Virus record (IMG/VR): IMGVR_UViG_2541047172_000012
Length of the DNA stretch: 5,663 bases
Direction: 5' to 3' (one strand)
Origin: a virus
Taxonomy: Duplodnaviria > Heunggongvirae > Uroviricota > Caudoviricetes
Positions within the stretch are counted from its first letter, which is position 1, and each line of letters starts with the position of its first letter. The notes below the pieces were generated by a model that was given only the letters and a program-made list of their open reading frames with translations, did not search any database and was not told the origin of the DNA. Both the position numbers and the translations under genes were made by a program. Positions 1,108-5,663 of the stretch are shown one piece after another.

Positions 1108-1824
<717 letters not shown>

Positions 1825-2198
1825 AGAGGATAGATGGAGTTTAATGGCCATGAGTATCAAGCGGTCAAAAAGAAGTTCATCTATTCATTGAAAGCATAAG
1901 GCCATCTGAGTATATCCGTAATGATCTGGATATTGTCTATAACATCAATGACCGGACGATAGATATCGGTGAGCAGCGTCCTGTATGGCAGGGTGAGGCA
2001 GGTGAAAAAACGTCCTGCCATCAACAAGAATCAAGTGCATCCGCTCTCTGGACAGATGGAAAATTTATTGGATGCAAAAAGATATGAAATAACACCTGTA
2101 TAGCACGGAGCTTTCTCTGACCGATGCACTTGAAGTTGTTAGGGCTGACCCAGCCTGCTGTTTCTTTAGGTAAGAGAAAAGAGATTTAGGAGATGAAA

Positions 2199-2225
2199 GG
2201 TCGCAGAGGTGCGGCCTTTTTTATT
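2199..2225 (+). terminator. Intrinsic terminator closing the non-coding region downstream of cI
   Basis: 7-bp stem GGTCGCA/TGCGGCC (one G-U), GAGG tetraloop, followed by TTTTTTATT. Confidence 0.6.
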
Positions 2226-2234
2226 GAGAGTGGA

Positions 2235-2267
2235 TCTTGAACGGAAATTCTCAAGACTTGAGTCTTG
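2235..2267. promoter_or_regulatory. Overlapping inverted repeats upstream of the 173-aa gene (operator-like)
   Basis: TCTTGA-N10-TCAAGA (2235-2256) and CAAGAC-TTGA-GTCTTG (2252-2267) share an arm. A GCATGC palindrome follows at 2266-2271. Confidence 0.35.
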
Positions 2268-2293
2268 CATGCAAATCAATTCCTGGATAAACT
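2265..2293 (+). promoter_or_regulatory. Candidate sigma70 promoter for the 173-aa gene
   Basis: TTGCAT (2265-2270), 17-bp spacer, TAAACT (2288-2293). It sits just downstream of a terminator and about 30 bp upstream of a purine-rich RBS (AGAGAGAGAG) and the ATG at 2326. Confidence 0.3.
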
Positions 2294-2325
2294 CGATCTG
2301 AGTCAATAACTTAGAGAGAGAGCAA

Positions 2326-2847
2326 ATGGCAAAGTCAAACGTTAGCGTGCAGGCATTCAAGGACTTCCTTGAAGAGCTTATGTCGCTGAACATAATGAAG
2401 GAGGCCACCGCTCGAAATTTAAAAAACTCATCCGCTCGCCTCTTAACGGTAGTCCAAGAAGAGGAAATGGGTGATGTTACTCAGCTTGATGTGAATGAGC
2501 TTGCCGAGCGATACATCAACGCAACTGAGCCGAAGCCTAGCGACAGCAGCATTACTGCATATAAAAGCCGCATGGAAAGTGCAATCAAAAAGTTTGTAGC
2601 TTTCCAGTCTGGTGAAGAAATCCCATACACTCCGATTGACAAAGAATCCAGTGAGGAAAAAGATTTGACTGGCGAACCAACAAAAGTCGAAGGCAAGGCT
2701 AATGCACTTCATACCTATGATCTTCCAGTAGTTCTTCGACCTGAATCAGGGGTTACAGTAACGATTAAAGGCATTCCTAACGATATCACAAACGAAGAAG
2801 CCGAACGCATCTCTTCAATTCTGAAGGTTTACGTTCGGCCTCAATAA
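2326..2847 (+). CDS. Hypothetical acidic protein (173 aa); cargo gene at the position of lambda rexA/rexB
   Basis: Clean 173-codon ORF with a purine-rich RBS, MAKSNVSVQAFKDFLEELMSLNIMKEATARNLKNSSARLLTVVQEEEMGDVTQLDVNELAERY... No resemblance to RexA/RexB or any family I recognise; E/D-rich, no obvious HTH or hydrophobic segment. Opposite-strand ORFs overlapping it are shorter and lack signals. Confidence 0.7.
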   Translation: MAKSNVSVQAFKDFLEELMSLNIMKEATARNLKNSSARLLTVVQEEEMGDVTQLDVNELAERYINATEPKPSDSSITAYKSRMESAIKKFVAFQSGEEIPYTPIDKESSEEKDLTGEPTKVEGKANALHTYDLPVVLRPESGVTVTIKGIPNDITNEEAERISSILKVYVRPQ

Positions 2848-3020
2848 TGCAAAAGCATTCAGCACAATGTCCAACTCCCCAGTCCGACATTGATGCTGTT
2901 TAACCAGAGCCTCCAAAAGGAGCCCTTGTTAAGGTACACAATATTTGCGATGTAACCTTAGCGCGTCTGGTACATTTTTTCAAGCGGTTGTAGGGCTGCC
3001 GCCAATATGAGAAAACACAG

Positions 3021-3143
3021 ATGTCTACATACAATTTGAATGACCAATTCGATCGAGAAGTTCATGTGAATGCCTATGAACGGATAAGGCATGGAAATCT
3101 TGAACATGTGTGTGAGCATTATCGCTCAAGGCCACACCGCTAA
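3021..3143 (+). CDS. Candidate small ORF (40 aa, His/Cys-rich), or the body of a terminator-capped small RNA
   Basis: ATG at 3021 to TAA at 3141-3143 encodes MSTYNLNDQFDREVHVNAYERIRHGNLEHVCEHYRSRPHR, ending 7 nt before a strong intrinsic terminator. No convincing Shine-Dalgarno; a possible promoter (TTCAAG-18-CAATAT, 2979-3008) would make it near-leaderless. Confidence 0.25.
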   Translation: MSTYNLNDQFDREVHVNAYERIRHGNLEHVCEHYRSRPHR

Positions 3144-3150
3144 TCATCAA

Positions 3151-3179
3151 CCCGGCCTCCATGCCGGGTTTTCTTTTCC
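3151..3179 (+). terminator. Strong intrinsic terminator, positionally analogous to lambda tIMM
   Basis: Stem CCCGGC (3151-3156) / GCCGGG (3163-3168), 6-nt loop, then TTTTCTTTTCC. Confidence 0.75.
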
Positions 3180-3357
3180 TCTCGCCCAAAAAAACACATA
3201 ACCAATTGTATTTATTGGAAAATAAATAGATACAACTCACTAAACAACGCAATTCTGATCTCTCCTTACATCGCCGAGGCAATACACCCACGCTAAAAAA
3301 CAATACTATTAAATACAAAGCGTTGTAAAAAAACGCCCCGTTTTAGAACAAATTGTA

Positions 3358-3386
3358 TTGACCAAGTGAAGTACATATCGTACTAT
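3358..3386 (+). promoter_or_regulatory. PL-like promoter upstream of nutL and N
   Basis: TTGACC (3358-3363), 17-bp spacer, TACTAT (3381-3386), set in an AT-rich region about 190 bp upstream of N. Flanked by short inverted repeats (TACAAAGCGTTGTA 3314-3327, ACAAATTGT 3348-3356, AGTAC-N5-GTACT 3370-3384) but no lambda-type 17-mer operators. Confidence 0.5.
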
Positions 3387-3432
3387 TTAACCATCAGCAG
3401 GACGCTGGAAGCCAAATGGAACAGACTGGCAG

Positions 3433-3477
3433 GCTCTTTAAACAACGTCGACTCTCGACTACGTGGCTGAAAAGCCA
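3433..3477 (+). promoter_or_regulatory. nutL-like site: boxA (3433-3445) and boxB hairpin (3464-3477)
   Basis: GCTCTTTAAACAA resembles the boxA consensus (CGCTCTTTAACAA). Downstream, TGGCT-GAAA-AGCCA forms a 5-bp stem with a GAAA loop. Both lie in the leader between the promoter and N. Confidence 0.5.
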
Positions 3478-3575
3478 GATCACCCAACCACATAAGCTGT
3501 GGGATGCAATGCCGAAGCAACCGTCTCAGGAGGAGCTTCGAGATTGCATCGCCAAAGTTTATTCGGGAGGAATCT

Positions 3576-3848
3576 ATGTCCAGAAAAACAGAATTTAAAG
3601 GCACCGCAGCTTCTCGCCGTAGAGCTCGTCGCGCAAACCTGCAAAGTCAGGAGGCGATTAGCTCCGACAAACTACACAGGCCAACCCCATCACGAGTGGT
3701 CTTACAATGCAAACGCAAACCAGCAATGAGAGCAGAAGTAATAACACTGACAACGTTGACCAGAAAATATGAAGGCTCAACTTGTCTTCCAAATGTAGCT
3801 CTTTACGCGGCAGGCTACCGTAAATCCAAACAACTGACAGCAAGATGA
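3576..3848 (+). CDS. N: Antitermination protein N, P22 gene-24-like rather than lambda-like (90 aa)
   Basis: Start chosen at ATG 3576 with strong RBS GGGAGG (3565-3570); the track ORF begins at an upstream Met (3504) with no RBS. It has an N-terminal arginine-rich motif (TAASRRRARRANLQ) and a C-terminus CLPNVALYAAGYRKSKQLTAR that closely resembles the P22 N C-terminus as I recall it (LLPGVALYAAGHRKSKQITAR). Confidence 0.75.
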   Translation: MSRKTEFKGTAASRRRARRANLQSQEAISSDKLHRPTPSRVVLQCKRKPAMRAEVITLTTLTRKYEGSTCLPNVALYAAGYRKSKQLTAR

Positions 3849-3898
3849 CTTGTGTTGGTCGCCAGAAAATGAAATTAGGCAGCAAACCACTTATTTGA
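3845..3898 (+). pseudogene. Relic of a lambda/21-type N C-terminus in the +1 frame, overlapping the N stop codon
   Basis: Frame open from 3824; ATG 3845 to TGA 3898 encodes MTCVGRQKMKLGSKPLI, resembling the C-terminal residues of lambda N (ITCSGRQKIKGKSIPLI) and phage 21 N (VTCVGRQKIKLGSKPLI), both from memory. Confidence 0.45.
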
Positions 3899-3906
3899 GG
3901 TGATAT

Positions 3907-4158
3907 ATGGAATTTCATGAAAGTGCGATTTGTGATTTTCGCGCTAACGCAAATTCAGTAAAACCACAGCCAATTGCAGTTCTTTTTAAAACAATGGGTG
4001 CGTGGGCTGTTTTATGCTTCGCCGCTGACGACACTGACGCAAGAATGGCAATAGGACAAGAGATGGAGATGGACCCGACAAACGATGAATTCATAATTTA
4101 TGGCGCTCCATCTAATTACTTACTTGATACCTGCAACATTTACAACAAGGCTGCCTGA
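3907..4158 (+). CDS. Hypothetical small protein (83 aa), first gene after N in the leftward early operon
   Basis: ATG 3907 preceded by RBS GAGGTGA (3898-3904); MEFHESAICDFRANANSVKPQPIAVLFKTMGAWAVLCFAADDTDARMAIGQEMEMDPTNDEFIIYGAPSNYLLDTCNIYNKAA. It sits where lambda has ral or small orfs; I do not recognise the sequence. Confidence 0.65.
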   Translation: MEFHESAICDFRANANSVKPQPIAVLFKTMGAWAVLCFAADDTDARMAIGQEMEMDPTNDEFIIYGAPSNYLLDTCNIYNKAA

Positions 4159-4204
4159 TGGTGGCCTTTATTTTTGGCATAAACAACAGAATAAACACAG
4201 CACT

Positions 4205-4232
4205 GTGTATTCATTCCAACGAGTGAATACAC
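4205..4232. repeat. Perfect 9-bp inverted repeat with 10-bp spacer in an intergenic region
   Basis: GTGTATTCA (4205-4213) ... TGAATACAC (4224-4232). No adjacent T-tract on either strand, so it is not a typical intrinsic terminator. Confidence 0.5.
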
Positions 4233-4294
4233 GGAGCAATGTCGCTCGTAACTAAACAGGAGCCGACTTGTTCTGATTATTGGAAATCTTCTTT

Positions 4295-4320
4295 GCCCTC
4301 CAATGTGAGGGCGATTTTTT
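4295..4320 (+). terminator. Intrinsic terminator upstream of ea10
   Basis: Stem GCCCTC (4295-4300) / GAGGGC (4307-4312), 6-nt loop, then GATTTTTT. Confidence 0.65.
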
Positions 4321-4340
4321 ATCTGTGAGGATATGAACAG

Positions 4341-4709
4341 ATGTCAAACATCAAAAAATACATCATTGATTACGACTGGAAAGCATCAATAGAAATTGAA
4401 ATCGACCATGACGTAATGACAGAGGAAAAACTTCACCAGATTAATAATTTCTGGTCAGACTCTGAATACCGACTCAATAAACACGGCTCTTTATTAAATG
4501 CTGTATTAATCATGCTGGCGCAACATGCTCTGCTTATAGCAATTTCAAGCGACTTAAATGCATATGGTGTTGTGTGTGAGTTCGACTGGAATGATGGAAA
4601 TGGTCAGGAAGGATGGCCTTCAATGGATGGTAGCGAAGGAATAAGAATTACCGATATCGATACATCAGGAATATTTGATTCAGATGATATGACTATCAAG
4701 GCCGCCTGA
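4341..4709 (+). CDS. ea10: Ea10 protein (122 aa)
   Basis: MSNIKKYIIDYDWKASIEIEIDHDVMTEEKLHQINNFWSDSEYRLNKHGS... matches lambda Ea10 as I recall it, in the correct position upstream of cIII. Confidence 0.85.
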   Translation: MSNIKKYIIDYDWKASIEIEIDHDVMTEEKLHQINNFWSDSEYRLNKHGSLLNAVLIMLAQHALLIAISSDLNAYGVVCEFDWNDGNGQEGWPSMDGSEGIRITDIDTSGIFDSDDMTIKAA

Positions 4710-4732
4710 GCGCGGCGTTACCGCATACCAAT

Positions 4733-4756
4733 AACGCTTCACTCGAGGCGTTTTTC
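4733..4756 (+). terminator. Terminator-like hairpin between ea10 and cIII
   Basis: Stem AACGCTTC / GAGGCGTT (with one G-U pair) around an ACTC loop, followed by TTTTT. It may be a partial terminator or a structure affecting cIII translation. Confidence 0.4.
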
Positions 4757-4781
4757 GTTATGTATAAATAAGGAGCACACC

Positions 4782-4946
4782 ATGCAATATGCCATTGCAG
4801 GGTGGCCTGTTGCTGGCTGCCCTTCCGAATCTTTACTTGAACGAATCACCCGTAAATTACGTGACGGATGGAAACGCCTTATCGACATACTTAATCAGCC
4901 AGGAGTCCCAAAAAATGGATCAAACACTTATGGCTATCCAGACTAA
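4782..4946 (+). CDS. cIII: CIII, inhibitor of FtsH that stabilises CII (54 aa)
   Basis: RBS AGGAG (4771-4775); [54 protein letters not shown] matches lambda CIII. Below the track's length threshold, so it was found by manual translation. Confidence 0.93.
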   Translation: MQYAIAGWPVAGCPSESLLERITRKLRDGWKRLIDILNQPGVPKNGSNTYGYPD

Positions 4947-5058
4947 ATTCACTATCGCCACTTTTATTGGCGATGAAAAGATGTTTCGTGAGGCCGTCGA
5001 CGCTTATAAAAAATGGATATTAATGCTGAAACTGAGATCAAGCAAAAGCATTCACTAA
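4915..5058 (+). CDS. kil: Kil, host-killing and FtsZ-inhibiting protein (47 aa)
   Basis: Internal Met of track ORF 4789..5058: [47 protein letters not shown], with RBS AGGAG (4901-4905). It overlaps the cIII 3' end and the gam 5' end as in lambda. Confidence 0.9.
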
Positions 5059-5429
5059 CCCCCTTTCCTGTTTTCCTAATCAGCCTGGCATTTCGCGGGC
5101 GATATTTTCACAGCTATTTCAGGAGTTCAGCCATGAACGCTTATTACATTCAGGATCGTCTTGAGGCTCAGAGCTGGACGCGTCACTACCAGCAGATCGC
5201 CCGTGAAGAGAAAGAGGCAGAACTGGCAGACGACATGGGAAAAGGTCTGCCCCAGCACCTGTTTGAATCACTCTGCATCGATCATTTGCAACGCCACGGG
5301 GCCAGCAAAAAAGCCATTACCCGTGCGTTTGATGACGATGTTGAGTTTCAGGAGCGCATGGCAGAACACATCCGGTACATGGTTGAAACCATTGCTCACC
5401 ACCAGGTTGATATTGATTCAGAGGTATAA
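5013..5429 (+). CDS. gam: Gam, inhibitor of host RecBCD nuclease (138-aa long form; short form starts at 5133)
   Basis: [55 protein letters not shown]... matches lambda Gam. The internal start at 5133 (MNAYYIQ) has RBS AGGAG at 5121-5125. Confidence 0.93.
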
Positions 5430-5434
5430 AGCGG

Positions 5435-5663
5435 ATGAGTACAGCACTCGCAACGCTGGCAGGGAAGCTGGCTGAACGTGTCGGCATGGATTCTGTCGAC
5501 CCACAGGAACTGATCACCACTCTTCGCCAGACGGCATTTAAAGGTGATGCCAGCGATGCGCAGTTCATCGCATTGTTGATCGTCGCCAACCAGTACGGCC
5601 TTAATCCGTGGACGAAAGAAATTTACGCCTTCCCTGATAAGCAGAACGGCATCGTTCCGGTGG
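5435..5663 (+). CDS. bet: Bet (Red-beta) single-strand annealing protein, N-terminal 76 codons; continues past the window end
   Basis: ATG 5435 translates to MSTALATLAGKLAERVGMDSVDPQELITTLRQTAFKGDASDAQFIALLIVANQYGLNPWTKEIYAFPDKQNGIVPV, matching lambda Bet. Not in the ORF track because no stop falls within the window. Confidence 0.95.
   Translation, partial: MSTALATLAGKLAERVGMDSVDPQELITTLRQTAFKGDASDAQFIALLIVANQYGLNPWTKEIYAFPDKQNGIVPV

Follow-up and report, generated by a model that had tools for sequence, protein, structure and literature searches.

A constrained 40-codon reading frame, probably the distal gene of a two-gene moron, in the immunity region of a Shiga toxin phage

The window analysed here is a 5,663-nt stretch of DNA from the IMG/VR virus record IMGVR_UViG_2541047172_000012 and is a lambdoid immunity region. 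In its accessory segment lies an open reading frame (ORF) of 40 codons, hereafter the mini-ORF, and we consider it probable that this ORF is genuinely translated into a small protein and forms the distal cistron of a two-gene moron, complete in itself, at the lambda rexAB slot. The mini-ORF is located in the immunity region of a medically important Shiga toxin (Stx) phage, the Stx2a phage Sp5/VT2-Sakai, and is missing from the current RefSeq annotation. It also brings to attention a large uncharacterised family of ~40-aa phage proteins, mostly skipped by standard gene callers. As a constrained mini-gene it would unite three published observations, namely an orphan Hfq site, a mis-framed ribosome profiling (Ribo-seq) signal and the reported lethality of deleting ECs1184, the first gene of the pair, and it offers a testable explanation for why ECs1184 has resisted deletion.

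Coding constraint on the mini-ORF and its protein family

The first-pass annotation of the window, made from the letters alone, had placed the mini-ORF at 3021-3143 and pointed to residues H15, H24, H29, C31, H33 and H39; both the coordinates and the residues are as it stated. The ATG at 3021 is the sole possible start, since there is an in-frame TAG at 2991-2993 and no other start codon ahead of 3021. The observation that the ORF has no clear Shine-Dalgarno (SD) sequence also holds, as an AGGAGG-type SD is absent from GCCAATATGAGAAAACACAG ahead of the ATG, where only a GAG is found, 9 nt before the start. The surrounding DNA (2850-3400) is 100% identical in ~44 Stx-phage records. The mini-ORF is annotated as H0092 (hypothetical protein) in AP000422 and is uncalled in the Sakai RefSeq record, which skips from ECs_1181 to ECs_1184.

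The mini-ORF is under strong purifying selection and is a genuine coding frame beyond chance. Diverged copies were found in P. vulneris (41 aa, 87% identical), in a Logan contig (44 aa, 76% identical, with a 9-nt in-frame insertion) and in IMG/VR, Salmonella and Cronobacter prophages, the Salmonella and Cronobacter ORFs being intact. For the E. coli, P. vulneris, Logan contig and IMG/VR copies (Nei-Gojobori method), the proportion of synonymous differences (pS) was as high as 0.87 compared to 0.12 for non-synonymous differences (pN), and the ratio of non-synonymous to synonymous rates (dN/dS) was 0.06-0.12 wherever dS could be estimated. Variable alignment columns at the three codon positions numbered 11/6/29 (of 40 each), a pattern like that of the 173-aa gene upstream (42/31/116), while the counts for an adjacent intergenic control were flat (20/20/19). 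All of the indels were in frame, comprising the 9-nt insertion and one C-terminal residue (Trp41) that is gained or lost. Comparing synonymous with non-synonymous change in homologous loci had been proposed as a check in the first-pass annotation, and the mini-ORF clearly passes it.

The encoded peptide matched phrog_21154 (function unknown) with E = 5e-8 over residues 10-38. Among 1.84 billion representatives, profile searching recovered 95 clusters (50% identity) at E <= 1e-3, mostly of 28-60 aa, and a second profile search recovered 240 clusters (90% identity), all 'hypothetical', with Variovorax and Delftia as the few named sources. A scan of IMG/VR with a degenerate DNA pattern detected at least 120 loci, and among the matches listed 120 of 121 candidate ORFs passed the family hidden Markov model. 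The window peptide has all of the invariant family positions (V14, V16, Y19, R21, R23, E28, H33, R35, S36 and P38) as well as G25 and V30, which are at least 90% conserved. The resulting core motif, V-x-V..Y-x-R-x-R-x-G..E-x-V..H-x-R-S-x-P, is common to hundreds of phage and mobile-element mini-proteins. The window peptide has the same core motif and size as phrog_21154 and is encoded by a stand-alone ORF with a unique start, within the family size of ~30-60 aa. The enterobacterial branch differs from phrog_21154 in having its own N-terminus (MSTYNLND) without the common C-terminal PGQLSLF tail; it is also near-neutral and has no strong SD, whereas other phrog_21154 members are strongly basic. 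The window peptide itself is hydrophilic with an isoelectric point (pI) of 7.0. Two large repeat proteins, P0052 and P0115, matched the family profile via an AY..A.RNGWLDEVC.HM repeat, which was taken as a partial motif resemblance.

The mini-protein is predicted to form one two-stranded beta-hairpin. AlphaFold2, run with 100 homologues, gave strands at residues 14-23 and 26-35 and a predicted local distance difference test score of 96 at residues 21-30. Given the histidine and cysteine residues, a metal-binding mini-protein had been proposed in the first-pass annotation. H29, C31 and H33 alternate on one predicted beta-strand and would thus be on the same face, and another type of mini-ORF, in the same slot of other cassettes, carries a CxxC...CxC pattern. 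Among 68-100 family members, however, H33 is the only one of the flagged residues that is invariant. Position 31 is C in 59-88% and R in 10-26% of members, with S, T, I and G also seen, such that C31 is replaced in 12-41%; position 29 is H in ~40%; and His is uncommon at positions 15, 24 and 39, where F, F and G, respectively, predominate. A metal cluster therefore does not characterise the family. Four conserved Cys/His ligands are not present, and the window peptide has neither a CxxC motif nor a match to a zinc-ribbon family. The mini-ORF product is probably not a metal-binding protein, and we regard the metal-binding proposal as very unlikely. Most likely the peptide would bind a macromolecular partner in the lysogen, with an accessory, exclusion or addiction-type role rather than a metal-dependent one.

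At the level of the family, the mini-genes are often stand-alone units. For 76 non-redundant viral-contig members among the matches listed, with crude ORF calling, the upstream neighbour was on the opposite strand in 26 cases, the downstream neighbour was convergent in 54, both neighbours were on the opposite strand in 23, and the median gap upstream of the mini-ORF was ~180 nt. The upstream neighbours of these listed members included M78 ImmA/IrrE peptidases (10/75) and helix-turn-helix regulators; downstream, we found S24 repressors (6), N peptides (6), AAA_13 (6) and AAA_21 (4). Two loci, L048 and L049, have the mini-ORF and a ~170 nt leader in common and unrelated upstream genes. The mini-gene with its leader is therefore itself a mobile unit, and one that tends to settle beside lysogeny-control modules.

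Table 1. Positions of the mini-ORF and of associated features in the window
Feature	Position	Strand	Description
Left-edge intrinsic terminator	2195-2226	+	GAAAGGTCGCA-GAGG-TGCGGCCTTTT and T-run; deltaG -15.9, z -4.13
Perfect palindrome	2252-2267		CAAGACTTGAGTCTTG; candidate operator, putative protein-binding site
Sigma-70-like cassette promoter (predicted)	2265-2293	+	-35 TTGCAT, 17-nt spacer, -10 TAAACT
173-aa gene (VT2-Sakai H0093, Sakai ECs1184)	2326-2847	+	Acidic; predicted N-domain, linker and C-domain
Leader hairpin 1	2860-2898	+	12-bp stem, then 3-bp tip; deltaG -16.6, z -5.74
Leader domain 2	2903-2971	+	Long-range stem around two hairpins
Leader hairpin 3	2977-3013	+	UUUUCA:UGAGAA and GCGGU:GCCGC pairing
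Hfq crosslinking (CRAC) peak EcOnc20	~2983-3108	+ (mini-ORF strand)	PMC4104026, converted coordinates
Mini-ORF (VT2-Sakai H0092)	3021-3143	+	40 aa, MSTYNLNDQFDREVHVNAYERIRHGNLEHVCEHYRSRPHR; phrog_21154 mini-protein family (predicted beta-hairpin)
Intrinsic terminator, lambda tIMM homologue	3149-3179	+	Cassette right edge; 8-bp stem 3149-3170, 6 G-C pairs, then TTTTCTTTTCC

A two-gene cassette in the lambda rexAB slot

The autonomous moron to which the mini-ORF belongs, as the second of two genes, occupies the lambda rexAB slot between cI and pL. We propose that the cassette runs from the terminator at 2195-2226 through the palindrome-overlapped promoter-like site (2252-2293), ECs1184, the leader and the mini-ORF to the tIMM-type terminator (Table 1). 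It is found downstream of at least five cI types in E. coli, Salmonella, Cronobacter and Serratia, and after a Q antiterminator in P. vulneris.

At the left edge, the terminator core GGTCGCAGAGATGCGGCC and its T-run are kept in 9/9 contexts, including the one after the Q antiterminator. The palindrome CAAGACTTGAGTCTTG occurs once in the window and overlaps the -35 element, and its half AGTCTTGC is invariant across contexts. The promoter-like site scores 8/12, which is under the scanner threshold; it was read from the sequence together with alignment A11, in which the -10 of homologous cassettes is TAGAAT. The promoter driving the mini-ORF is likewise putative. With a terminator and a promoter-like site of its own upstream, the cassette may lie outside the pRM transcript. 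A ~100-nt extra insert was observed ahead of the 173-aa gene in most cassettes, namely in L005, L006, L041, L043, L007 and L027 (A11 columns ~140-240), and is missing from the window and from Salmonella L036. This insert carries a promoter-like TTGACG, 16 nt, TATACA and, ~15 nt on, a hairpin, CCCTC-TGAT-GAGGG, with a T7 run, and could give rise to a tiny transcript or act as an attenuator.

At the right edge, the strong terminator that the first-pass annotation had noted is well supported, with a hairpin and U-tract (TTTTCTTTT) for which deltaG is -14.3 kcal/mol and z is -4.75, and 0/200 shuffles fold as well. The mini-ORF stop is 7 nt before position 3151, from which that annotation had counted, and 5 nt separate the end of the stop codon from the stem base. 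The hairpin is annotated in AP000422 as 'putative rho independent terminator for pRM transcript'. Lambda, 933W, H-19B and HK97 become homologous to the window again exactly from this hairpin onwards (alignment A12); the lambda match (35708-35826) adjoins the rexB stop, and the hairpin and ~95 nt beyond it are homologous. Since lambda homology restarts there, after rexB, the 3149 hairpin corresponds to tIMM, which in lambda is located just after rexB, and marks the right border of a replaceable slot. The first-pass annotation was correct in assigning the mini-ORF to an accessory locus. Its description of an independently terminated element has to be revised, in that the terminator is a tIMM homologue of the lambdoid backbone and the ORF is second in a two-gene cassette.

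The lambda rexAB slot is known for accessory or exclusion genes expressed in the lysogen. The cassette is in the same slot as rexA-rexB, between cI and OL/pL, with a homologous terminator, although the genes are unrelated and one copy of the cassette is found after a Q antiterminator. It also resembles phage morons (Juhala 2000; PMC3594210) in being a terminator-flanked unit with its own promoter-like site, in varied contexts and with variable presence, but differs in having two genes with a long structured inter-cistronic leader and in that its promoter is a predicted one. In other cassettes, small ORFs of unrelated sequence stand after the 173-aa gene, with a terminator-like hairpin behind them. 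They encode a 47-aa CxxC...CxC peptide in L027 (4690-4833) and Serratia L039 (4690-4833), and a 57-aa basic peptide of phrog_33859 in Proteus L007 (4675-4848). In L027, homology to the window leader ends within the first few codons.

The short distance between the mini-ORF stop codon and the stem base (5 nt) would also fit a regulatory leader peptide, where a ribosome at the stop masks the terminator and tunes read-through into the pL/N operon, the peptide sequence being irrelevant. Among homologues, however, the stop-to-hairpin spacing ranges from 5 to 16 nt, and the amino acids are conserved over hundreds of clusters in unrelated contexts with mostly convergent downstream genes, making this explanation extremely unlikely.

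Leader structure, ribosome footprints and Hfq binding

Across 10 distinct homologues, the 173 nt that separate the 173-aa gene from the mini-ORF form a conserved, structured leader. In the leader model, 97.4% of cells were paired, and 7 pairs were changed on both sides, compared to 1.8 in shuffles (0/500 reached 7) and 0-3 in slid controls. The stem of hairpin 1 is invariant in all 10 homologues, and its 14-nt tip is reverse-complemented in 4 of these. In homologues from Salmonella and IMG/VR, AGACTGGGGAGTTG stands in place of the tip CAACTCCCCAGTCC (2872-2885), of which it is nearly the exact reverse complement, and the stem is unchanged; this is a small inversion that keeps the structure. 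Domain 2 has three consecutive compensatory pairs (CCAGA/TCTGG compared to CTGCA/TGCAG), and hairpin 3 has changes on both sides at three pairs. A weak promoter had been suggested near 2979-3008 in the first-pass annotation; this stretch is instead the conserved hairpin at 2977-3013 with its compensatory changes. Two other features here were considered and set aside. The U-run at 2975-2980, as a possible attenuator tail, is not kept in the copy on the Logan contig, and its partner in hairpin 3 is UGAGAA; the conservation of the ATG at 3007, a possible start for a 10-codon upstream ORF, is accounted for by hairpin 3 pairing.

The purine stretch 8-13 nt upstream of the mini-ORF ATG (UGAGAA) is paired in hairpin 3, which would thus occlude the ribosome-binding region and could gate translation. 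Strong SDs are found in most of the listed family members, and those of distant members lie within anti-SD/SD hairpins, which suggests the same gating logic. The absence of a strong SD, the pairing of the ribosome-binding site (RBS) in hairpin 3 and the Hfq binding described below are together consistent with mini-ORF translation that is probably low and regulated.

The locus is transcribed and has ribosome footprints in Sakai, though the published frame assignment is doubtful. Hücker 2017 (PMC5597208) lists XECs114, whose peptide is that of an out-of-frame ORF at window 3091-3201, with RNA values of 452/807/234 and Ribo-seq values of 135/88/2.6 reads per kilobase per million (RPKM) in three conditions. 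Read in the +2 frame, XECs114 shares sequence with the 3´ end of the mini-ORF and extends across the terminator hairpin. The conserved 3021-3143 frame is a more plausible source of its Ribo-seq signal. No entry for ECs1182, ECs1183 or ECs1184 was found in the Hücker 2017 supplements.

The locus also overlaps an Hfq site found by crosslinking and analysis of cDNA (CRAC). EcOnc20, an orphan CRAC peak in Sp5 (1255628-1255753, minus strand), passed in 4/5 experiments (Tree 2014, Table S2; PMC4104026). With a +142 offset between genome versions, obtained from XECs114 and checked against the stx2B and AsxR positions, the peak falls on the mini-ORF strand and spans the end of the leader and the first 29 mini-ORF codons. 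EcOnc20 was not among the candidates examined by Northern blot, and its area under the curve was modest (PMC4104026).

This result bears on the small RNA (sRNA) that the first-pass annotation had offered as an alternative. The RNA part of that proposal agrees with the overlap with EcOnc20; the purely non-coding part is contradicted by the dN/dS of 0.06-0.12. A non-coding, terminator-capped, Hfq-dependent sRNA, or a processed 3´ UTR RNA with the ORF incidental, would account for a CRAC peak on the correct strand in most of the experiments, ~40 nt upstream of the terminator, as well as for the missing SD, for the lack of a RefSeq coding sequence (CDS) and for a promoter-like match at 3007-3035. 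It would not account for an amino-acid sequence under strong purifying selection with near-saturated synonymous change, nor for the strong SDs of family members in other phyla. In addition, the 5´ regions of mRNAs are also bound by Hfq, and the evidence for EcOnc20 as an sRNA comes with a modest area under the curve and no Northern test by its authors. We therefore consider an RNA with an incidental ORF very unlikely. The mini-ORF RNA is probably not purely non-coding, and the locus may combine a functional RNA with a coding gene. For the sRNA-only, the metal-protein and the attenuator reading alike, a specific test gives a contradictory result.

Known prophage sRNAs of enterohaemorrhagic E. 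coli (AgvB, AsxR, StxS, HnrS and the EcOnc series) are similarly prophage-encoded and terminator-capped and come from the same screen, but these are 50-70-nt non-coding RNAs of the late region, while the window site coincides in part with a coding frame under selection. The mini-ORF locus is not a subject of the Pas-sRNA preprint or of the HnrS paper. Rfam (whole window, E <= 1) returned no match at the mini-ORF and only the lambda cIII thermoregulator, at 4769-4827. A promoter and terminator scan of 1800-3650 found no minus-strand promoter inside the mini-ORF or leader hairpin 3, the nearest minus-strand promoter-like matches being at 3329-3300 and 2873-2844.

Several observations weigh against a translated, regulated small-protein gene. 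The NCBI annotation pipeline (PGAP) called no CDS at the locus in 234 complete E. coli genomes, none of the enterobacterial copies has a canonical SD, and the mini-protein has no Pfam, NCBIfam or PADLOC match. No Foldseek match of the 40-aa model in the PDB had an E value under 2.4, which is unsurprising for a single hairpin. Ribosome coverage was published with a low ratio, 0.01-0.30, and credited to another frame (PMC5597208). For the leader, the single-sequence fold of hairpin 3 was not significant compared to shuffled sequences (z -0.75), and the structure was derived from the same small set of 10 related sequences that was used for scoring. Taking these points together with the selection on the frame, we still favour a translated gene at the distal end of the cassette.

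ECs1184 and the surrounding immunity region

ECs1184 (pI 4.85) is predicted to comprise an N-domain that resembles integrase core-binding domains, a disordered linker and, C-terminally, a beta-beta-alpha domain; the sole matches from Pfam, NCBIfam and PADLOC were integrase SAM-like ones below threshold. In TRAPP/PNK work ECs1184 was not a strong RNA-binding protein. An in-frame deletion of the gene was unobtainable and 'appears to be lethal to the host' (Mondal et al., PMC5155283). The other Sp5 early gene that these authors failed to delete is ECs1180 (ORF21; PMC5155283), which corresponds to an 83-aa ORF at window 3907-4158 with no Pfam match.

A more specific version of the small-protein explanation, and not a contradiction of it, is a toxin-antitoxin-like or addiction module in which the mini-protein is toxic and ECs1184 represses at the palindrome, neutralises the peptide, or both. 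Loss of ECs1184 alone would then be lethal to a lysogen because the peptide would be over-expressed, in agreement with the failed deletion (PMC5155283). The antitoxin-first layout also fits, with an acidic protein carrying a predicted DNA-binding domain, a linker and a small C-domain, and a palindrome over the -35, as do the tightly occluded RBS with Hfq bound there and the positions of family members, often behind Xre/M78 (COG2856-type) modules and beside AAA_13/AAA_21 genes. As the cassette is found behind several cI types and also behind Q, a role of ECs1184 as an immunity-specific co-repressor is improbable. Finally, three natural disruptions all abolish peptide expression, and none hits ECs1184 alone. 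However, toxicity of the mini-protein is a supposition, and the unrelated ECs1180 was likewise non-deletable in that study, so other causes are possible. Any of three unrelated mini-ORFs can follow ECs1184, and its C-domain is conserved in each case, a point against neutralisation through a specific protein-protein contact. The window peptide is neutral, no homology to a known toxin, antitoxin or defence family was found (Pfam, NCBIfam, PADLOC), and IS629/IS1203 is very active in O157, so that insertions may be neutral. On balance we consider an addiction module possible but unlikely.

The disruptions are independent insertions into the ~1-kb cassette. In O157 strain 644-PT8 (L173, ~2297), an insertion sequence (IS) of the IS1203/IS629 type lies between the promoter-like site and the 173-aa gene; four other genomes, unmapped, have the same match span and annotation. 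An IS3-family element is found just upstream of hairpin 3 in plasmid pNJS001-2 (L174, ~2979-2984), and an insertion truncates the mini-ORF in an IMG/VR contig (L032, ~3089).

Comparison with known toxin-antitoxin systems is similarly mixed. The pair resembles type II systems in its acidic upstream protein with a predicted DNA-binding domain, promoter palindrome, small downstream ORF and reportedly non-deletable upstream gene, but it has a 173-nt structured spacer where type II genes usually abut, and no known homologues. Like the type I toxin mRNAs hok, tisB and ralR, it has a small prophage ORF of the kind that usually goes unannotated, a leader that pairs with the RBS and an association with Hfq. 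The type I toxins are membrane helices, however, whereas the window peptide is a hydrophilic predicted beta-hairpin, and no antisense RNA of a type I system was found with the scan of 1800-3650, the literature Hfq peak being on the plus strand only. More tentatively still, ECs1184 and the mini-protein might constitute a module for addiction or abortive infection, so far unrecognised, in Stx prophages and other prophages of enterobacteria, with the peptide as a new class of hydrophilic toxic effector. If so, peptide synthesis would be held down by autorepression, the RBS-occluding leader and Hfq, the module would explain why ECs1184 cannot be deleted in Sp5 lysogens, and phrog_21154 would represent widespread mini-effectors attached to Xre/M78 and cI-type repressor modules of phages and mobile elements.

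The remainder of the window comprises cII and cro on the minus strand, lambda-type OR operators (1037-1100), a lambda-type cI (1111-1824) and the accessory segment, beyond which are a Sakai-type OL/pL, nutL, N (3576-3848), ea10, cIII, kil, gam and bet. Positions 725-1820 are 97.6% identical to lambda, and 1414-5663 are 99.5% identical to VT2-Sakai/Sp5. The immunity is thus a hybrid, with lambda-type OR and the DNA-binding half of cI joined inside cI (~1414) to a Sakai-type OL/pL (3311-3386). No lambda operator was found near pL in the window, and, judging from these sequences, the hybrid cI should not repress the window pL. The hybrid junction in cI was absent from 5,426 complete E. coli genomes and 50,697 phage records. 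Between cI and the cassette (1834-2100) there is a frameshifted DUF3024 remnant, whose joined translation matched PF11225 with E = 1.6e-6, above the gathering score.

Beyond the tIMM-type terminator, the 90-aa N stops at 3846-3848. When the frames are conceptually joined, the C-terminus of lambda N (TCSGRQKIKGKSIPLI) is matched by the 18 codons that follow in the -1 frame (KMTCVGRQKMKLGSKPLI; region 3576-3899). As the lambda N C-terminus continues in the -1 frame past the stop, N is either truncated or frameshift-dependent; the same arrangement of a stop and -1-frame tail is seen in VT2-Sakai. In the RefSeq record of Sakai, a 60-aa hypothetical CDS, ECs_5705, is annotated at 3416-3598 in the pL/nutL leader and overlaps the start of N.

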